A stretch of 32,000 nucleotides of DNA from Promethearchaeota archaeon (GCA_030606485.1 JAUWGH010000006.1:30001-62000); one strand, 5' to 3'; positions 16,286-28,865 are shown, numbered from the stretch's first letter. Translations and numbers: made by a program. Notes: generated from the sequence alone by a model not told the origin.

Positions 16286-16735
16286 ATGGAAAATAAGAAA
16301 TGGATTATTCTTTGCATTTTAGGTGGAACTTTAATGATTATTGGGTGCGCTACAGGTAGTATTGTACTTTATGAAGTAATTCATAATTTAGCCTTAGGTT
16401 ATATTGGAGAAGAATTGGCAACAATTTTTTCAATAATTTTAAAAATCTTTGGATATATAGCCGCAGCTGGTGGTGCTTCAGTTATTATTGGCGCTTTAAT
16501 AGTAGCAATGGGTCGTTATAGACTTGGGAAATTTATTATTGGTCTCGGAGTTGGCTTAGGATTGATTAGTTTAATAATATTTATAATAACAGGTATAATT
16601 GAGGGTACAATCACAGGATTTTTCATAGAGTTAATAACAGAATTAATCGCTTTAAAGGGCGGTTTTGGTTTTACTGGAGCAGTTCTTACATTTTTTTCTA
16701 GAAGGCAATTAAAAAAGGAAGAAAAAGAAGATTAA
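16286..16735 (+). CDS. Gly-rich hypothetical membrane protein (about 4 TM)
   Basis: Hydrophobic Gly-rich helices, charged C-terminal tail, GAGGG RBS-like sequence upstream. Confidence 0.65.
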   Translation: MENKKWIILCILGGTLMIIGCATGSIVLYEVIHNLALGYIGEELATIFSIILKIFGYIAAAGGASVIIGALIVAMGRYRLGKFIIGLGVGLGLISLIIFIITGIIEGTITGFFIELITELIALKGGFGFTGAVLTFFSRRQLKKEEKED

Positions 16736-16825
16736 ATTTATTTTTTTTTTTAATTTTAAGCATAAAATGTAGGAATTAAAATATTCTCATAAACAATTAG
16801 AATTTAAATATTAGCGCAATTTATG

Positions 16826-17893
16826 TTAAATATATTTTTTAGCAATTAAATATTCAGCAGATAAAACTCCACCTCGCCCTGCGCCTAACTCAGTATTATG
16901 ACTTAGAACAGTAAATTTTAATCCGTTGATAAAATTCGTCTTTTCTATTCCACCAACATAAGTTCTCATCCCCGTTTTTTCATCCCCTTTATTATCAAGG
17001 TCAATTCTTGGTTGAGGTCGATAAGGGTCATCGAAAACCTTTATTGGGTGTTCAGGAGCATTTGGTAAATCTAGACCAGCTGTTTGTCCTTCAAAATCTC
17101 TCAATGTTTGTTTAATTTCTTCAATATCTTCAAATTCCTTAACTGTTTCTATAAAAACACTTTCCATATGACCATTTATAGAGGGTACTCGATTACACTT
17201 ACAATCGATTAAAAATTCAAGATCATGTATTTTATCCTCAATTATTGTACCAAAAATCTTCTTAATCTCTCTCATTACTTTTCTTTCCTCCCTTTCTATA
17301 TGAGGAATAACATTTGCAATTATGTCGTAGCTAGCAACACCAGGATAACCTGCTCCTGTAATTGCTTGCATGGAAACCATATGAACACTTTTAATACCAT
17401 ATTTTTTTAAAATAGGATATAATGAAATTGCCAATCCGATAGCTGTGCAATTAGGACCAGGAACAATAAAACCTTTCCACCCACGTTTCTTTTTTTGAAT
17501 ATCTAAAATTCTATAATGCTCTCCATTAACAATAGGTAAAAATATTGGAACATCTTCTTCATATCTATAAGCAGCTGCTGTACTTATCACAGGTTTACTT
17601 GTTGCAATTTCACCCTCAATTTCTCGAGCATACCCTGAAGGAATTGCAGAAAAAACAATGTCAATTGAATTTAGATCTAAATCTTTAATATCAGTAACTG
17701 TCATTTCTTTTATTTCCTCTGGATATTTATAACTCGTAAAGCCCCTGATTGATTCCCCAAATTTTTTGCCAATCGAGGCGTGTCCATGCAATGATATGAT
17801 TTCAAACCAAGGGTGTCCTATTAATGCTTCCATAAACTGCTGTCCCGCCATTCCAGTGGCACCAATTACGCTCGCTCTATATTTTTTAGGCAT
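16826..17893 (-). CDS. asd: Aspartate-semialdehyde dehydrogenase (archaeal type)
   Basis: VIGATGMAGQ, PNCT catalytic Cys, SMQAITGAGYPG, CNRVPSINGH, RPQPRID, SHNTELGAG. Confidence 0.93.
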   Translation of the reverse strand: MPKKYRASVIGATGMAGQQFMEALIGHPWFEIISLHGHASIGKKFGESIRGFTSYKYPEEIKEMTVTDIKDLDLNSIDIVFSAIPSGYAREIEGEIATSKPVISTAAAYRYEEDVPIFLPIVNGEHYRILDIQKKKRGWKGFIVPGPNCTAIGLAISLYPILKKYGIKSVHMVSMQAITGAGYPGVASYDIIANVIPHIEREERKVMREIKKIFGTIIEDKIHDLEFLIDCKCNRVPSINGHMESVFIETVKEFEDIEEIKQTLRDFEGQTAGLDLPNAPEHPIKVFDDPYRPQPRIDLDNKGDEKTGMRTYVGGIEKTNFINGLKFTVLSHNTELGAGRGGVLSAEYLIAKKYI

Positions 17894-21128: not shown

Positions 21129-22211
21129 ATGACAGACAAGAGATATTTGCTAGGACTTGACATTGGAGGGGCAAATACTAAAGCTGCGTTAGTGGAATTT
21201 GATAATAAAAAGTTAAACAAAATTTTTACTGCTATTAGGTATTACCCATTTTGGGAAAAAACCATAAAAGAATTACCTAATATGCTAAGAAATTTAAGCA
21301 CACAACTGTTAGAAAAGAGTAATATTGATATCAATGATATAAATAAAATTGCAGTTACTATTACAGCCGAGTTGTCTGACGCTTTTCAAACAAAAAGGGA
21401 TGGGATTCAAACCATCTCAAAGGCGCTAAAAAGAGTCTTCGAGTCAGATAAAATAATGGTGATCAACAATCAAAATATATTCCTTAAAGTTCAAGACGCG
21501 TTGGAAAATTATTTAAATGTTGCTGGAGCAAATTGGGTTGCAACAGCTCTATTTATCGGCTCTTATAAGCCGGAATGTATTTTAATTGATGCTGGCTCAA
21601 CAACTATTGATCTTATTCCGATTAAATATGGAAAACCTCAAACAATTGGTAAAGATGATGTTTCAAGAATAATGAATCACGAATTAATTTATACTGGTGC
21701 ATTAAGAGCAACCATTCCCTCAATAACTCATTTTATTCCATTTAAGGGAAAAAGTTGTAGAATTTCATTTGAAAAGTTTGCATTAATTGCAGATGTTCAT
21801 CGCATTTTAGGGCATATTACCGAAGAGGAATATACTTGTGATACTGCAGATAATCGTTCTAAGTCCTTTGATAATTGCTATGCTCGACTTTCACGTATTA
21901 TATGCAGTGATTTAGAGCAAACTACAAAAGATGAGTTGAATTCAATTGCCAACTATATATATCAAGCTCAGCTTAAAATTATTATGGATGAAATTCAGTT
22001 GTTTATGGAACTAACATCTTATAGACTGCCAGATTTAACGCAAAATCCATTATTTATTACAACGGGTTTAGGTGAGACATTTTTAATAAATACTGCGCTA
22101 AGTAATTTAGGATATAATAATATGGTAAGCTTTTCAGACATAATCAAGTTTCCAGATAACGTGATATCCTCCGCTATTGCTGTTGCGGGGGCATTAAATC
22201 TATTTATATAA
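21129..22211 (+). CDS. mfnF: MfnF-like H4MPT/methanofuran-linked C1 protein (hydantoinase/oxoprolinase family)
   Basis: LGLDIGGANTK, TAELSDAFQTKRDG, ANWVATA, LIDAGSTTIDLIPI, ELIYTG, FALIADVH, CDTAD, ARLSRIICSD. Confidence 0.85.
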   Translation: MTDKRYLLGLDIGGANTKAALVEFDNKKLNKIFTAIRYYPFWEKTIKELPNMLRNLSTQLLEKSNIDINDINKIAVTITAELSDAFQTKRDGIQTISKALKRVFESDKIMVINNQNIFLKVQDALENYLNVAGANWVATALFIGSYKPECILIDAGSTTIDLIPIKYGKPQTIGKDDVSRIMNHELIYTGALRATIPSITHFIPFKGKSCRISFEKFALIADVHRILGHITEEEYTCDTADNRSKSFDNCYARLSRIICSDLEQTTKDELNSIANYIYQAQLKIIMDEIQLFMELTSYRLPDLTQNPLFITTGLGETFLINTALSNLGYNNMVSFSDIIKFPDNVISSAIAVAGALNLFI

Positions 22212-22231
22212 AAAATTGTTGATATTTATAG

Positions 22232-23005
22232 ATGATTGATAATGTTCTTCTATTTAAAATCGGAGGAAAAATAATCGATAACAAGACTGATTTAGATAAT
22301 ACTATCTCCCAATTACGTGCCATTAAAGAAATTAAACCGTCGATAAAATCAATAATTCTAATAGCTGGAGGGGGCTCTAATGTTGATGAAATTCGAAAAT
22401 CCTATAAAAGAGGAGAAATCAATGATGAGGTTGCGCATTGGCAAGCAATTAAAATTATGGATCTGAATGCTATAAAAATTCAAGATCTCAATAAAGATTT
22501 TACTCTTACTGATTCATTCATTGAATTAACAAGGTTAGTGTCGTCATCTGGACAGTTTAAAATAATTAATTTTCCAACCTTTAAATATCTAAAAAGAAAT
22601 GATGAGCTTCCCCATAACTGGAAAACTACTTCAGATTCGATTTCATATTTTATAGCCAGTAAATTGAATCTCTTAAAATGTTTTTTAATTAAAGATCTAG
22701 ATGGAATTTATCTCAAAGACGGTAAAAAAATAATAAAGAATTTATCAATAAATGATTTTCAAAAATTTCAAAAAAACGATCTATTATTCAATCCTATAAT
22801 CTATGGGATTAAAAAGCAATTTTTTTCTCTAAAGAAGCAATCAACCCCGATTGACTCATATTTATTAACTTTAATTAAAGAGTATAAATTAGATTGTATT
22901 ATATTAAATGGAAAAAAGCCATCTACAAATATTACAAAATATTTTCAATCTATAAACGAAGATGAGAAAGTTTATACAAAATTATACTGCGACGCTTCAA
23001 GGTAG
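22232..23005 (+). CDS. mfnE: Amino-acid-kinase family protein, MfnE-like
   Basis: KIGG, IAGGG...DEIR, AHWQAIKIMD, LPHNWKTTSDSI, KDLDGIY; directly downstream of mfnF-like. Confidence 0.75.
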   Translation: MIDNVLLFKIGGKIIDNKTDLDNTISQLRAIKEIKPSIKSIILIAGGGSNVDEIRKSYKRGEINDEVAHWQAIKIMDLNAIKIQDLNKDFTLTDSFIELTRLVSSSGQFKIINFPTFKYLKRNDELPHNWKTTSDSISYFIASKLNLLKCFLIKDLDGIYLKDGKKIIKNLSINDFQKFQKNDLLFNPIIYGIKKQFFSLKKQSTPIDSYLLTLIKEYKLDCIILNGKKPSTNITKYFQSINEDEKVYTKLYCDASR

Positions 23006-23011
23006 CGGAGA

Positions 23012-23429
23012 TATCACGCATAGATCAAACCGAAAGATTAATCTCTTTAAAGCATTGACAGCAAGGAATCCCTATAATAATTTTATTTTTATAAGTTTTT
23101 GATTTATGCATTAATTTTAACAAATTTTCTTTTAATTTTTTCGCAAATTTAGTTTCTTCAAAATAAAACCTCATTAAATCATCTTTATGATTTTCTCCTT
23201 TACAAATAGGACAAATAGAATAAAATTCTAAGAAATTATCACAAATTTTCTTTTCTTCATCAGATAAGGCTTCATAGTCCTGATTAACAGCAAATGTATC
23301 TTCAAATAATATTTCTTGTATTCTTTCAATATCTACTAGCATTTGCTCTCTAATCAAAGTTATAGTGTCAATATCTCCCTCATGATTTTCCTCTGATTCA
23401 AATGGATTCGAAGAAAAATAAGACATATC
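23012..23429. repeat. Direct repeat copy 1 (418 bp)
   Basis: Aligns without gaps to 27252-27669 (offset 4240). 26 mismatches by manual count, about 94% identity. Confidence 0.97.
23025..23426 (-). CDS. Small Cys-rich (CPIC...CCQC) putative Zn-binding protein, copy 1
   Basis: 133 aa from ATG 23426, matching the start of copy 2. The ORF-track extension to 23492 lies outside the repeat and is probably not coding. Confidence 0.8.
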   Translation of the reverse strand: MSYFSSNPFESEENHEGDIDTITLIREQMLVDIERIQEILFEDTFAVNQDYEALSDEEKKICDNFLEFYSICPICKGENHKDDLMRFYFEETKFAKKLKENLLKLMHKSKTYKNKIIIGIPCCQCFKEINLSV

Positions 23430-23618
23430 TATAAATATCCATATATTTTTAAAATATGAACTTATGAAAAACAGGTTATTAATATGAACCATTAAAATTA
23501 AGTAGTTTTTTATTCATATATAAGAAAATGGTCATAAAACATATAAAAGAAACCGAATTTCAAACAAGTTCTGAAATGACGGTCTAATGGGCTTATTTTA
23601 ATATCATCTACACATGTA

Positions 23619-23674
23619 TAGATTTATACATTTTTCAATTTCGAATTATACAGAGAGATAAATCGATTTATACA
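23619..23674 (+). promoter_or_regulatory. Three 12-bp direct repeats at exact 22-bp spacing, candidate regulator-binding array
   Basis: TAGATTTATACA (23619), TCGAATTATACA (23641), TCGATTTATACA (23663). Confidence 0.5.
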
Positions 23675-23938
23675 AAGATATAAACTTGTGAAAAATGATA
23701 AAAGCAAGGTTTAGAAAAGTGCTTGGCTTCGCTTGATTCCAAATGGACAAGTTTAATAGAGAATCTTATACTAAAAAAAAAAATTATTAAAGGAGGTAAA
23801 GCTGGTTCATCCTAATAATATTGAGTTTATATAAACTTTAAACGAATAGTTAAATAGTTCAAAGAAGATAAAATTTTTAAGATCAAAAATATATCTGTCC
23901 AAAAAAAAAATAAATAAAAATATTAAGTGATTAGTATA

Positions 23939-25276
23939 ATGAGTGAAGAAAACGAACAAAAGCAGAGTAAAATCCAAGTGAGAAGAATTGGAAAACGTAA
24001 TATTTTGTCCATTCTCTTCTTAGGAACCGCAGGACAAATTGCCTGGGTTGTTGAAAATAGCTGGTTCAATACATTTGTGTACGATCGGATTACGACCGAT
24101 CCAACACCGATTGCGTGGATGGTAGCAGTAAGTGCAATAACTGCTACTCTTACCACAATTTTAATGGGCGTTCTTAGCGATCGAACTTCTGGGAAATGGG
24201 GTAAAAGAAAACCTTACATTGTCTTTGGATACATTCTTTGGGGCGTAATAACAGCAATCTATCCAATGGTAGAATGGATTCAAACGATTGGGATTGCTGT
24301 TATAATGGTAATCATTACCGATGCAATCATGACCTTTTTTGGCTCAACGGCAAACGATGCTGCGTATAATGCTTGGATAACGGACATAGGACATTCGAGT
24401 AATCGTAATCGAATACAAAGTATTAATAATATAACGGTATATATTGCAGCTATGATTGCATTTGGTGCTGCAGGAGTAATTATAGATATCTTCGGGTATT
24501 TCGTGTTTTTCTACATTCTAGGGGGGATAGTAACTTCCACTGGTTTGATTGCTGCATTTTTAATTGAATCTACTCCAATAAAAAAAGATGAAATTAAATT
24601 TGAAAAGTCATTACTCAAAGAATTTGCTGATCTCATGAATCCTAAAATTCTGAAAGAAAATCGCATTCTTTTCTTGCTGTTTCTGTGCATGGCTTTAGCG
24701 GGTATAGGAAGCCAAGTTTACATGCCTTATCTCTTCATATTCATGGAAAATTACGTTGGTTTCTCAAAAACGGAACTAGGTCTTTTTATGGCGCTTTTCT
24801 TGCTTCTCACGATAGTCGTATTGGTTATTGTGGGTATTTTTAGTCATCGATTTAACCGCAAGACTTTGGTCGTAATTGGCTCGATCTTGGGGGCAATAGG
24901 AACGATTATATTAGGGTTCACATCATTTCTAGTTAAAGGAAATAGTTCTCTAGCAGTAGTGATATTCCTCCTTTATTTTGTGGCAACTATACCAGCGCTA
25001 ATATCTCAAGTTGCGCATGGAGGGTGGCTTCTTGATAAATATCCTGAAGGAGATATTGGAAAATTTCAAGGCATTCGCATGATTTTCATGGTTCTATTAC
25101 CCATGGTTATAGGAGCTCCGATTGGATCGGCTATCATAAGCACATTTGGAATCCCTATAGCTGATGGATACATTCCGACACCTGAGATATTCATTTTTGG
25201 AGGGCTAATTTCGCTATTGTCGGTGATTCCAATATTATTTATTAGTAAATCCGAAGGACAAATAAAACTTGATTAA
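23939..25276 (+). CDS. MFS transporter, probably sugar/glycoside:cation symporter
   Basis: About 12 TM; GVLSDRT...GKRKPYI motif, DAAYNAWITD, HRFNRK, GKFQGIRM. Start may be GTG 23927. Confidence 0.88.
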   Translation: MSEENEQKQSKIQVRRIGKRNILSILFLGTAGQIAWVVENSWFNTFVYDRITTDPTPIAWMVAVSAITATLTTILMGVLSDRTSGKWGKRKPYIVFGYILWGVITAIYPMVEWIQTIGIAVIMVIITDAIMTFFGSTANDAAYNAWITDIGHSSNRNRIQSINNITVYIAAMIAFGAAGVIIDIFGYFVFFYILGGIVTSTGLIAAFLIESTPIKKDEIKFEKSLLKEFADLMNPKILKENRILFLLFLCMALAGIGSQVYMPYLFIFMENYVGFSKTELGLFMALFLLLTIVVLVIVGIFSHRFNRKTLVVIGSILGAIGTIILGFTSFLVKGNSSLAVVIFLLYFVATIPALISQVAHGGWLLDKYPEGDIGKFQGIRMIFMVLLPMVIGAPIGSAIISTFGIPIADGYIPTPEIFIFGGLISLLSVIPILFISKSEGQIKLD

Positions 25277-25310
25277 TTTCAGTGATTTATCAACATTTTA
25301 AAATATTTAA

Positions 25311-27239
25311 ATGGGAAAAATCTTGAATTCATTAGAAAAAAAAGAGATTCCAAGACCAGAATATCCCAGACCGCAATTTGTTAGGAAAGATAATTGGATA
25401 AATCTTAACGGAGAATGGAATTTTGCCTTTGATGATTCAGACACGGGCTTGAAAGAAAGATGGAACAAAAAGGAACAAAAAGGTAAATTTGACAAGAAAA
25501 TTGTCGTTCCGTTTTGCTTTCAAAGCAAGTTGAGTGGAATAGAAGATACATCTTTTCACGATACTGTTTGGTACCGAAAAGAATTCGCAGTACCCGAAGA
25601 ATTTATGAATGAAAGAGTTTTATTGAACTTTGGAGCAGTAGATTATTCCTGTGCCGTTTATTTAAATGGGGAATCAATAGGAACGCACGAAGGTGGATAT
25701 ATCGGATTTACTTTAGATGTGTCCGATTTTATAGAAAAAAACAACGTCCTCGTTGTAAGAGTACAAGATCCGAGTACAGATTTAGAGATACCTAGGGGAA
25801 AACAATTTTGGTACGAAAAATTACAACACATTTTCTATCCTCGCGTCACTGGGCTCTGGCAGACAGTCTGGTTAGAAGCCGTTTCCAGAGATTATCGCAT
25901 TGAAGGGTTGAAATTAACCCCAGATGTGGATAAATCTAACATTATCATTGAGTGTGAAGTTGATGGAGTTGGAGTAGGTTTCCCTGAGCTATCCTTATTA
26001 GCAGAAATATTTTTTGAGAACGATAAAATCAACGAAATTGATATCAGTCTAAATTCTCTTGGAAATGCAAAAATAAAAAGGGATAAAAAGTTAATCAAGG
26101 CGAAAAGTCTTACCGGAAAGTTGGTAAATCCTAATCGATTTAAATTTAAAATCTCAATTCCTAAAAACGCATTACATTTATGGGATGTAGAAAACCCCAA
26201 CTTGTATGATATTATAATAAAGATATGTAATAAATCTTCAAAAGAAATTCATGACGAAGTAAAGTCCTATTTTGGCATGAGAAAGATTTCTTTATCGGAA
26301 AGCCCAGAAGAGGTATCAAAACTGAATGATGAGCAAAACGATATAGTGAGTTTTAATCGACAAGTTCTATTGAATGATACACCAATCTATCAAAAATTAT
26401 TTTTGGTTCAAGGATATTGGCCAGACGGTTTATATACAGCGCCTTCAGACGATGCAATAAAGTTAGACATACAATATATAAAGGGTTTTGGGTTTAATGG
26501 ATTAAGAACTCATCAAAAAGCGTTTGATCCCCGGTTTTTATATTGGTGCGATAAAATGGGCGTGCTGGTTTGGGGCGAAATAGGAAACGCTTATCAATTC
26601 TCTACACGATCTCAACTAAGATTAATCAATGAATTTGCAGCTGAAATAGAACGAGATTATAACCACCCTTCGATCATTGCCTGGACGGTTTTAAACGAAT
26701 CCTGGGGCGTCCCCGGAGCAGATAGAGATGAAAGAAAGAGAGATTATACACTCTCTTTATATTACTTGATGAAATCTATTGATCCAACGCGCCTCATTGT
26801 TGATGATGATGGCTGGTTTCATTGTGTAAGCGACATGTGCACAATACATTATTATTCGGCGGGTGAATTCATTCCTAAATCGTTTGAAGACGGGATACGG
26901 AGTTTTAAAAAAGCAAGACCTAAAATTTATCTCAAACCTTATGAATATAACGGTGAGCCAATAATATATAGCGAAATAGGTGGTTTTGGCTACGATTTAC
27001 ACGGAGAGATAAAAGAAAAGTGGGGTTATGGAAATACATTACAAGATTCAGAAGAATTATATACAAAAGTCTTAGAATTATTGAAGGAATTCGATAAAAG
27101 AAAAGAATGGATTCACGGCTTCTGCTATACAGAACTCTACGACCAGTTTCAAGAAATCAATGGCTTATTGACATTTGATAGAGAACCTAAATTTGAACCG
27201 TTGAAATTGAAAAAAGAGTTGGATAAGATGTTCTATTAA
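25311..27239 (+). CDS. Glycoside hydrolase family 2 (beta-galactosidase/glucuronidase-like)
   Basis: RPEYPRPQF, LNGEW, FGAVDY, HEGGY, RGKQ, GLWQTVWLE, YFGMR, GFNGLRTHQK, NHPSII.W...NESWG (acid/base Glu), SEIGG (candidate nucleophile), GFCYTELYD. Confidence 0.92.
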   Translation: MGKILNSLEKKEIPRPEYPRPQFVRKDNWINLNGEWNFAFDDSDTGLKERWNKKEQKGKFDKKIVVPFCFQSKLSGIEDTSFHDTVWYRKEFAVPEEFMNERVLLNFGAVDYSCAVYLNGESIGTHEGGYIGFTLDVSDFIEKNNVLVVRVQDPSTDLEIPRGKQFWYEKLQHIFYPRVTGLWQTVWLEAVSRDYRIEGLKLTPDVDKSNIIIECEVDGVGVGFPELSLLAEIFFENDKINEIDISLNSLGNAKIKRDKKLIKAKSLTGKLVNPNRFKFKISIPKNALHLWDVENPNLYDIIIKICNKSSKEIHDEVKSYFGMRKISLSESPEEVSKLNDEQNDIVSFNRQVLLNDTPIYQKLFLVQGYWPDGLYTAPSDDAIKLDIQYIKGFGFNGLRTHQKAFDPRFLYWCDKMGVLVWGEIGNAYQFSTRSQLRLINEFAAEIERDYNHPSIIAWTVLNESWGVPGADRDERKRDYTLSLYYLMKSIDPTRLIVDDDGWFHCVSDMCTIHYYSAGEFIPKSFEDGIRSFKKARPKIYLKPYEYNGEPIIYSEIGGFGYDLHGEIKEKWGYGNTLQDSEELYTKVLELLKEFDKRKEWIHGFCYTELYDQFQEINGLLTFDREPKFEPLKLKKELDKMFY

Positions 27240-27251
27240 ATATTAATGAGC

Positions 27252-27669
27252 TATCACGCATAGATCAAACCGAAGGATTAATCTTTTTAAAGCATTGACA
27301 GCAAGGAATCCCTATAATAATTTTATTTTTATAATTTTTTGATTTATGCATTAATTTTAACAAATTTTCTTTTAATTTTTTCGCAAATTCAGTTTCTTCA
27401 AAATAAAACCTCATTAAATCATCTTTATGATTTTCTCCTTTACAAATAGGACAAATAGAATAAAATTCTAAGAAATTATCACATATTTTCTTTTCTTTAT
27501 CAGATAGGTTTTCATAATCCGGACCAACAACATATGTATCATCAAATAATATTGCTTGTATTCTTTCAATATCTGTAATCATTTGTTCTCTAATCAAAGT
27601 TATAGTGTCAATATCTCCCTCATGATTTTCATCTGATTCAAACGGATTTAAAGAAAAATAAGACATATC
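27252..27669. repeat. Direct repeat copy 2 (418 bp)
   Basis: Ungapped match to 23012-23429. Confidence 0.97.
27265..27666 (-). CDS. Small Cys-rich (CPIC...CCQC) putative Zn-binding protein, copy 2
   Basis: 133-aa paralogue of 23025-23426; both CxxC pairs are identical in the two copies. Confidence 0.85.
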   Translation of the reverse strand: MSYFSLNPFESDENHEGDIDTITLIREQMITDIERIQAILFDDTYVVGPDYENLSDKEKKICDNFLEFYSICPICKGENHKDDLMRFYFEETEFAKKLKENLLKLMHKSKNYKNKIIIGIPCCQCFKKINPSV

Positions 27670-27734
27670 AATATTTTAGAAAACAATTTAATTAAATAAA
27701 TTTTAGTTTCTCTTTTCTTTATTCAAATTGGGAA

Positions 27735-28865
27735 CTACTTTTTTTTACTCTTTTTTAATTCTTGCTTTATTTTTTCAATCTTGGTATTTTCAATCCAATA
27801 ACGAATTTTTGATTTCGATAATAATGATTTAATTCGATTATTTAATTTTCGGAATATTTTCTTGTCAGCTTCAGATAATTGCGGGATCTTTTCTAAAGAA
27901 TAATCTTCTTCAGAAGGTATAGTTAGTTCTTCTTCTGGTAATGGAATTTGTATCTGCTCTTTTTTATCCAATAACTTCTCTCTTAAAATTCTTTTAATAT
28001 TTTTTCTCCAGCCCTGTATCCAGGGAAAATTTTCTTTAACTTTTGGGTCTTCGATTTCAATATCAAAACGTTTAACTATTATTAGATCCTCAGGACAACT
28101 GTTTTGGCATGCTCCGCAATATATACAATCATCTTCTTTCACTGCAATTTTTCCGTATTTCTTAACATCTTCGGCAGTTTCAGGAATAAAAAAAGATTCG
28201 GTGGGACAAATATTCACACAAGCCTTGCAACCTGTTGGATCGCATCGATGAAGCATATTTTGTTTAATTATAACCTCTCCTTTAATCGGAGATTCTATTT
28301 TAAAACATTTTGTTGGACATTCTTTTTGAATTTTTAAGAAATCTTTAATATGATTTCCATCTTGAACTTTTAGACATAAATTACAAATCTCATTTTTGAT
28401 GTCTTTAATGCATTTTTTAAGGTCAATCTTAAAAAAAGGTTTAAGCTTTGGATATTGGCTTAAAATTAATTGTTCTTCAGGTTTAATAGTTGTTTCATAT
28501 ACATCATTTATACAAACAACAGGACATAACATGCAATAACAGCATTTATCATAATCAATTATGATATAAGGTGCATTCTCTATAATACCTTGTGCGATTT
28601 CAGGAACTGGACCTAATTCAATTGCGTCTGTGGGGCAAACTAATTTACAAAAACTGCATCCAACACATTTATTCAAATCATAAATTAATTTTTTATTAAC
28701 ATCTTTAAATTTCCAAAAAAAAACTAATTTCTCGTTTTCAACATCTGTGGCTTTTAATATATCATCGATCTGCTCTTCTTGAGCATTTAAATCTTTAGAT
28801 TCTTTATCGTTAGATCTCGAAATTATAATCAGAGTCCAATCGTTTATGAAATTTACCAGTTCCAA
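27735..28865 (-). CDS. fwdF: Polyferredoxin, formylmethanofuran dehydrogenase subunit F-like (reduced cluster count)
   Basis: CVGCSFCKLVCP-TDAIELGPVPEIAQG...APYIIIDYDK-CCYCMLCPVVC; CDPTGCKACVNICP; CIYCGACQNSCP. The LGPVPEIA insert is as in FwdF-type proteins. Confidence 0.7.
   Translation of the reverse strand: MELVNFINDWTLIIISRSNDKESKDLNAQEEQIDDILKATDVENEKLVFFWKFKDVNKKLIYDLNKCVGCSFCKLVCPTDAIELGPVPEIAQGIIENAPYIIIDYDKCCYCMLCPVVCINDVYETTIKPEEQLILSQYPKLKPFFKIDLKKCIKDIKNEICNLCLKVQDGNHIKDFLKIQKECPTKCFKIESPIKGEVIIKQNMLHRCDPTGCKACVNICPTESFFIPETAEDVKKYGKIAVKEDDCIYCGACQNSCPEDLIIVKRFDIEIEDPKVKENFPWIQGWRKNIKRILREKLLDKKEQIQIPLPEEELTIPSEEDYSLEKIPQLSEADKKIFRKLNNRIKSLLSKSKIRYWIENTKIEKIKQELKKSKKK

Follow-up and report, generated by a model that had tools for sequence, protein, structure and literature searches.

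A transporter and glycosidase gene pair between two copies of a small Cys-rich gene in a Promethearchaeota archaeon, best read as a homology-driven duplicative insertion

How did a putative MFS transporter gene and a predicted GH2 glycosidase gene come to lie between two complete copies of a gene for a small Cys-rich protein in the genome of a Promethearchaeota archaeon? The locus sits in a stretch of 32,000 nucleotides (GCA_030606485.1, JAUWGH010000006.1:30001-62000, or G000:C4:30001-62000; the whole stretch is termed the window hereafter). The genome that holds it, G000, comprises 3.75 Mb in 13 contigs with 29.2% GC, and its host is taken, from sequence, as an Asgard, Lokiarchaeia-like archaeon; closely matching DNA is present in the metagenomes of 8 studies of cold-seep and marine sediments. 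An earlier note on this DNA regarded the duplicated gene as a recombination handle, serving either the integration of a circle by homologous recombination or an exchangeable cargo slot. The best reading of the locus is a one-off, homology-driven duplicative insertion followed by recombination between the repeats, an event of an ordinary kind that is unusually well documented here. The comparison covered three genomes of the same genus (G001, G002 and G003, of which G002 represents a sister species), a distant genome (G004), metagenome and ENA contigs and scaffolds (L0xx), and the assembled contigs of sequencing runs (among them X1, X2, X4 and X10).

The two repeats (copies A and B) align without a gap (23008/23012-23433 and 27248/27252-27673) at a spacing of 4240 bp, leaving an insert of 3.8 kb between them. 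A repeat search reports 23008-23307 and 27248-27547 at the same spacing, and a self-BLAST of the genome recovers the pair as 426 bp with 93.4% identity; the copies differ at 26 positions (23013-23429 versus 27253-27669). Each repeat extends from 13-17 nt past the stop codon of the small gene to 3-7 nt upstream of its ATG, and the sequences upstream of copies A and B are unrelated to each other. Both open reading frames (ORFs) are intact, and the encoded proteins are 88% identical. The earlier note had given the repeats, their 26 mismatches, their boundaries, the unrelated upstream sequences and the gene content, all of which hold.

A repeat of this kind may be produced by joining the sequences of two strains in an assembly, the danger that the earlier note had itself named. 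G000 is a metagenome-derived genome with an estimated contamination of 4.65%, and the alleles of copies A and B also occur in different relatives, as such a chimera would predict. Nevertheless, a single contig of 3955 bp from X1 spans 23361-27315 with 0 differences, and so takes in the A-specific right end, all of the cargo and the B-specific left end on one molecule, and an unbroken chain of contigs from X2, which belongs to another study, covers the whole path with 0-5 differences. The arrangement is complete, at 99.65% identity, on the independent 76-kb ENA scaffold L063, in the order mfnE-like gene, copy A, MFS, GH2, copy B, fwdF-like gene, helix-turn-helix (HTH) gene and CDC48 (the suffix "-like" is used for mfnE and fwdF since the best NCBIfam matches fall below cut-off). 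Three more scaffolds carry parts: L066 and L067 the cargo through copy B to the fwdF-like side, and L064 the cargo with the end of copy A on one side and most of copy B on the other. The chimera is thus refuted. The length of L064 (4252 bp), close to the 4240-bp period, had suggested a circle, a candidate that we rejected, as the length is accounted for by contig breaks within 44 bp that A and B have in common; contig ends in the available assemblies fall at stretches identical between the two repeats.

Across more than 12 assemblies, the locus was found in three states only. The earlier note had proposed looking for an empty site in relatives, and such a site, a single small gene flanked by the mfnE-like and the fwdF-like gene, was found in G001, G003, G004, L055, L059, L060 and L061. 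The four empty metagenome contigs come from other studies, and the lineage of L061 is only ~78% identical. The state with the cargo and two copies was found in G000, L063, L064, L066 and L067, and the contigs of X1 and X2 trace it too. As these carriers are mutually at least 99.3% identical across the locus, they represent one species-level population. The third state, with the cargo and one copy, was found in G002 and in an 11-kb contig of X10, both of which share the same spacer, MFS and GH2 genes. Beyond the GCTA at the right end of the cargo, the sequence of this allele is unrelated for 258 bases and then leads into a fwdF-like gene of only 78% identity and ~1.1 kb of additional sequence. 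No different cargo was found at this slot among the assemblies. The locus is thus an insertion polymorphism.

The cargo is compositionally foreign and the small-gene copies are native-like. The earlier note had judged the cargo richer in GC by eye, and the figures agree: its GC content is 34.1% against 29.2% for the genome, and the GC content at third codon positions (GC3) is 0.32 for the MFS gene (98th percentile) and 0.31 for the GH2 gene (97th percentile) among 1435 long ORFs with a mean of 0.212. The GC3 of both small-gene copies is 0.15-0.17.

We found no sign of a mobile element that could have delivered the cargo by its own enzyme, in agreement with the earlier note. No Pfam match to an integrase or a transposase was found among the ORFs scanned from 19.8 to 32 kb of the window, and in a genome search PF00589 matched contig C1 only, with none on the contig of the window. 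ARAGORN found no tRNA in the window, no Rfam element was found at the locus, and the repeat search detected no terminal inverted repeats at the cargo ends. There is no short att core, the repeats being ~420 bp long and 6% divergent; the boundaries of the insert are the edges of homology, not a short target-site duplication. An integrase-mediated island was accordingly rejected (no recombinase, no tRNA, no short att core), as was the insertion of a composite transposon or insertion sequence (IS), given that the repeat encodes a 133-aa protein without a family match and that neither inverted repeats nor a short duplication are present. The claim of the earlier note that the insertion was made and bounded by homology without an integrase is therefore supported.

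The differences between the two copies bear on how they arose. Twelve of the 26 are shared polymorphisms, all within 23267-23410, at which copy A agrees with G001 and G002, and copy B with G003; in an alignment with the single copies of relatives, 6 differences are private to copy A and 8 to copy B. Since duplication in place followed by drift would give private differences only, the two copies are, on this pattern of polymorphism, allelic. Copy A is G001-like overall (12 differences). Copy B is G001-like in its left part and G003-like in its middle and right parts, matching the G003-like fwdF flank next to it.

The middle of copy B (23244-23346) varies among strains that are 99.3-99.9% identical to the window across the locus. 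It is of the A type in L063, L066 and L067, including the A-private bases 23293 and 23335, with the ends remaining of the B type, and of the G003 type in G000 and L064. On one reading, copy B of some strains was converted by copy A; on the other, a G003-like allele was imported and converted copy B in G000 and L064. Each implies homologous exchange at the repeat, and the expectation of the earlier note that the repeats recombine is borne out.

The cargo has recombined as well. On the left the X10 contig differs from G000 at 1 of 1898 positions, versus 43 of 3585 on the right, in the cargo (p = 2e-7), and 22 of the 30 listed variants in its cargo are in common with G002. By this distribution of variants, X10 is a recombinant of two cargo-bearing types, G000-like to ~24.7 kb and G002-like thereafter. 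Between G000 and G002, synonymous differences occupy 20 of 688 sites in the cargo versus 92 of 1284 in the flanks (Fisher p = 6e-5), corresponding to a synonymous divergence of ~0.03 in the cargo and 0.05-0.10 in the flanking genes. The low divergence of the cargo implies that the module moved between the lineages of G000 and G002 after their split. The flanks of the locus are mosaics, including a patch within the mfnE-like gene (22800-22885) where G000 differs at ~35 positions from G001, G002 and G003, which agree mutually. The mfnE-like gene of L063 is identical to that of G000, and the patch is also present in X10 (21800-23697, one difference). This patch looks like a short tract imported or converted from a divergent source, and is possibly the left part of the imported tract considered below.

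The junctions give the clue to the order of events. The left junction, between cargo and small gene, lies 5-9 nt upstream of the ATG and is identical in G000 and G002, implying that it arose once. At the right end, a GCTA positioned 11-14 nt past the GH2 stop codon is the last sequence that G000 has in common with the one-copy allele of G002 and X10. It is also the first that G000 has in common with the empty alleles, where it lies on the 3' side of the small gene. The right junction of the G000 type reads ...AATGAGCTA, then the repeat, and that of the G002 type ...AATGGGCTA, then unrelated sequence; the empty H1 alleles read ...GGAGCTA and then the repeat sequence, directly after the mfnE-like stop codon. 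In X10, 27253 is joined to 27739 across 258 letters of other sequence. Had the two-copy form been the first, the break in G002 would need to fall exactly at the edge of the repeat, and we therefore take the one-copy form as older; with one copy first, no coincidence is needed, since the point of joining would itself set the boundary of the repeat.

The order of events, the role of GCTA and the recombination route are what we infer from these comparisons. The MFS and GH2 genes would have been an accessory pair that, in a related lineage, already had the small gene as a neighbour, an arrangement that would survive as the G002/X10 allele. Incoming DNA may have brought the donor copy of the small gene plus the cargo into the ancestor of the species of the window, where one end would be integrated by homology and the other sealed between the GCTA past the GH2 stop codon and the GCTA past the resident small gene. 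The outcome would be a donor-type copy A and a resident-type copy B around the cargo; gene conversion between the copies and recombination of the cargo between species would have followed. The import may have taken either of two routes. In route (a), a linear molecule would recombine homologously at its left end, in or left of the mfnE-like gene, and join at GCTA at its right end, so that the donor would be the source of copy A and of the mfnE-like 3' end, and copy B would be the resident one. In route (b), the incoming DNA would circularize at the same GCTA and enter by a single Campbell crossover inside the small gene, leaving reciprocal chimeras. Common to both routes is that general recombination, not an element-encoded enzyme, would have made the structure, a proposition toward which we lean with slightly better than even confidence.

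A 4240-bp circle integrated by Campbell-type recombination was one of the two possibilities raised in the earlier note. In route (b) the circle would consist of the small gene, the regulatory region, MFS and GH2, would form in a one-copy donor and would enter the resident small gene by a RadA-mediated single crossover. It would account for repeats that are the full length of the homology and for empty sites that are clean with exactly one copy, and would do so without a recombinase gene. A crossover near 23244 would make the donor copy (the left of B plus the right of A) G001-like throughout, and the resident copy G003-like in its right half, in line with the G003-like fwdF flank. On the other hand, two events are needed, as the circle junction at GCTA must form first, the chimera model improves the fit little (12 to 8 differences), and the patch in the mfnE-like gene and the private variants in the left of copy A are left as a separate, unexplained import. 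The circle and the linear import fit the junctions equally well. The variants specific to G000 relative to G001-G003 run contiguously from 22800 to ~23335, from the patch through the left of copy A, and this run would be more economically explained by route (a), as part of one putative imported tract from the mfnE-like gene to 27253. In G002 and X10 the cargo adjoins a homologous anchor (mfnE-like gene and small gene), as it would on a donor molecule. We thus slightly favour the linear, one-sided import of route (a), tentatively and with confidence short of even, and consider the circle rather unlikely. If instead the two-copy state with cargo were an old stable duplication that predates the radiation of G000-G003, G001, G003 and others would have popped the cargo out, and G002 would have lost copy B separately. 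Pop-out between repeats of 420 bp yields exactly the clean single-copy sites observed, polymorphisms shared between A or B and the single-copy alleles fit differently placed crossovers, and the two-copy state persists in strains differing by 0.3-0.7%. Yet a single copy without cargo is likewise present in the distant G004 and L061; many independent losses would be required; G001 is A-like right up to the ATG, which forces the crossover into the last ~20 bp of homology; the GC3 of the cargo is still strongly atypical; and between G000 and G002 the cargo shows at most about half the synonymous divergence of the flanks. Altogether, we regard an old duplication as improbable.

Several points weigh against the insertion as we reconstruct it. 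A microhomology of 4 nt is by itself weak evidence. The crossover scan has a weak optimum at 23244, where the distance of the reconstructed donor to G001 falls only from 12 to 8, and later conversion blurs the signal. The direction of events is inferred, and shared polymorphisms together with clean empty sites would also be expected of an old two-copy state from which the cargo popped out repeatedly. No donor lineage of the cargo was found, the next GH2 relatives being only 66-70% identical. The fwdF-like segment of G002 looks like a replacement from an unsampled lineage. Only contigs were compared, which are blind to circles, tandem amplification and an empty allele in the same strain. Finally, the contig depth of the cargo is roughly half that of the flanks in X2 and 60% in X4; this could mean mixed cargo-plus and cargo-minus cells, a hint that we did not use as evidence because contig depth is not copy number.

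The other proposal of the earlier note, a dedicated, enzyme-free cassette slot in which the small Zn-binding gene is the standard handle for swapping or amplifying catabolic modules, would gain from the whole-gene repeat, from the recombination of the repeats, from the variable presence of the cargo among close relatives, and from a few other gene-sized direct repeats around accessory genes in the genome. We found it not supported, because a single cargo occupies the slot in all of the assemblies that carry one and because no further close copy of the small gene turned up in the genome. The earlier note had proposed a search for more copies that flank other cargo: the only other homologues in the genome are three paralogous matches with 46-53% identity, whose surroundings were not examined. 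Homologues in other genera lie outside this synteny and not beside MFS or GH2 genes, the clearest of the other repeat pairs consists of a UPF0175 gene duplicated together with its neighbour in a hypervariable island, without a link to the small gene, and no fold or family match ties the small protein to DNA transactions. A cassette slot is thus very improbable. We give an equally low probability to the wider notion that the small gene, or gene-sized homology generally, is a reusable handle in polyploid-like Asgards by which RadA-type recombination captures, amplifies, exchanges and discards modules; if true, it would amount to an enzyme-free cassette economy with this locus as the first resolved example. 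As for alternative cargo, loose contig ends inside the spacer were considered and rejected: the four placeable ends map to unrelated loci of the genome and were taken as short shared words, and most of the ends are unplaceable.

Other direct repeats in G000 were noted. The UPF0175 pair lies at G000:C4:201976-202872 and 216633-217531 (L052:1977-2873 and 16634-17532), 899 bp long with 94.7% identity; it holds an antitoxin-like UPF0175 gene and a 164-aa partner, probably a toxin-antitoxin pair, and brackets 13.8 kb of accessory genes (MFS, ChrB_C, AMP-binding, NMO, NYN, PIN). More pairs of 266-456 bp with 95-96% identity, 1.3-9.5 kb apart, lie at C13:48502-48957/58478-58932, C1:279737-280002/285261-285526 and C1:7667-8002/9263-9598 of G000, and these might be further footprints of duplicative recombination. 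The pairs at C4:201976/216633 and C13:48502/58478 are in hypervariable islands, and no clean empty site for them was found in relatives.

The small protein has the pattern CPxC...H...CCxC and no match to a Pfam or NCBIfam family. Its AlphaFold model (predicted local distance difference test score, 77) is helical with two Cys knuckles and found no PDB match at E <= 0.001, and its best Atlas feature score, 0.78, is under the level counted as more than a lead. Neither the model nor the family searches link the protein to recombination. The gene family, which has no Pfam model, gave 1-6 matches per genome in all 24 of the searched genomes of the family of the window (f1). The conserved C-terminal module of the small protein, ~80 aa long (FxxFLEFYSxCPxC...NH...GIPCCxC), also ends proteins of 269 aa and 397 aa, encoded at L005:1480-2286 (G000:C8, minus strand) and L011:1474-2664 (G037), whose N-terminal part resembles a small Ras/Rab-type GTPase (TIGR00231, E = 5e-10, just below cut-off).

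The features of the locus are given in Table 1. The mfnE-like gene converges on copy A and is syntenic in every relative. The spacer separates copy A from the divergently oriented MFS gene; a search of its own genome found no further copies, with only two short partial matches (68 bp at 82% and 53 bp at 79%), and it has no Rfam match. The GPH subfamily that the MFS protein best matches comprises glycoside-pentoside-hexuronide:cation symporters, and the GH2 protein matches PF02837, PF00703, PF02836 and PF22666, all above cut-offs (N-terminal sugar-binding, immunoglobulin-like and TIM-barrel). The nearest GH2 relatives outside this cluster are 66-70% identical, and the named ones belong to Promethearchaeota, Lokiarchaeota and other Asgard groups. 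The MFS and GH2 pair also occurs in two other genomes, both of the genus g9 (52-54% and 63% identity), with the small gene not nearby.

Table 1. Positions of the features at the locus, counted from the first letter of the window
Feature	Position	Strand	Basis or remark
mfnE-like gene of the amino-acid-kinase family, left flank	22232..23005	+	Pfam AA_kinase; best NCBIfam MfnE, below cut-off
Hyperdivergent patch inside the mfnE-like gene	22800..22885		four-way alignment
Direct repeat, copy A	23008..23433		repeat search, pairwise alignment, self-BLAST
Small 133-aa Cys-rich gene, copy A	23025..23426	-	ORF call; cargo on its 5' side
AT-rich intergenic spacer of 0.5 kb, part of the cargo	23434..23926		only in cargo-bearing alleles
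MFS transporter, best subfamily of the GPH type	23927..25276	+	Pfam MFS_1, MFS_2; TIGR00792 gph best NCBIfam, below cut-off
GH2 glycosidase, beta-glucuronidase/beta-galactosidase-like	25311..27239	+	four GH2 Pfam domains and NCBIfam matches
Direct repeat, copy B	27248..27673		repeat search, pairwise alignment, self-BLAST
GCTA at the right cargo end, candidate microhomology junction	27250..27253		junction comparison of G000, G002, X10 and empty alleles
Small 133-aa gene, copy B	27265..27666	-	native position, downstream of the fwdF-like gene
fwdF-like polyferredoxin gene, right flank	27735..28865	-	Pfam Fer4 families; best NCBIfam FwdF, below cut-off

Some details of the relatives deserve mention. 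In G002 (L036:13470-15870), the fwdF-like gene beside the cargo has ~78% DNA and 70% protein identity to those of its genus and, with 305 aa, is shorter; the best matches of this divergent segment are in its own genus at 75-78%. The ~1.1 kb after it holds a tetratricopeptide repeat (TPR)-like ORF, and no tRNA, Rfam or mobile-element match was found in the segment or the extra sequence. Within the 258-bp segment behind the GH2 gene of G002, ~57 nt (L036:13655-13711) have one match each, of 82-88% identity, in several genomes that belong to other genera, with no tRNA or Rfam match. The contigs L056, L057 and L058 (positions 1-33), which come from different samples, all end 32 nt upstream of the ATG of the small gene, the exact point at which the cargo-bearing and empty alleles diverge; this shared end is consistent with a branch in the assembly graph and the presence of both alleles in those samples.

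Campbell-type integration is familiar as the laboratory "pop-in" merodiploid or as plasmid integration by homology. The locus resembles it in that the direct repeats equal the shared homology, that recombination between them can restore a clean single-copy site and that no site-specific recombinase takes part, but the 4.24-kb unit has no known circular form, replicon or origin, and reciprocal chimerism is not clear. A second likeness is to homology-facilitated illegitimate recombination, known from naturally transformable bacteria and from conjugation in E. coli (PMC3240628). In both cases foreign DNA lies beside a homologous anchor, no element-encoded enzyme is involved, the far junction falls at a few shared bases (here GCTA) and the donor copy of the anchor is carried in. 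Here, however, the organism is an uncultured Asgard archaeon, the mechanism is deduced from alleles, and a whole gene was duplicated with no resident sequence deleted. The integrated elements of Asgard archaea employ tyrosine integrases and short attachment motifs, for example one of 11 bp (PMC11529989). Integrase-borne elements (PMC11529989; PMC8813620) are likewise strain-variable chromosomal insertions bounded by direct repeats. Unlike them, the present locus has no integrase, a repeat of ~420 bp at 6% divergence, and a cargo of only a transporter and a glycosidase.

In the literature that we searched, no such event has been resolved at this level in this lineage. Gene gain in Asgard archaea is usually inferred from gene trees, and to our knowledge the mechanisms resolved so far are integrase-borne elements; the same recombination logic is well known in bacteria. 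The locus gives a base-level view of a route without an integrase, with three alleles, a defined junction, a switching tract of 100 bp and a recombinant between cargo types. Taken together, the alleles, the junction, the tract in copy B and the X10 recombinant show that homologous recombination is active in natural populations of cold-seep and marine sediments. That homologous recombination can add a catabolic module, here one predicted to serve glycoside uptake and hydrolysis, to the genome of such an archaeon is useful to know, albeit not surprising.

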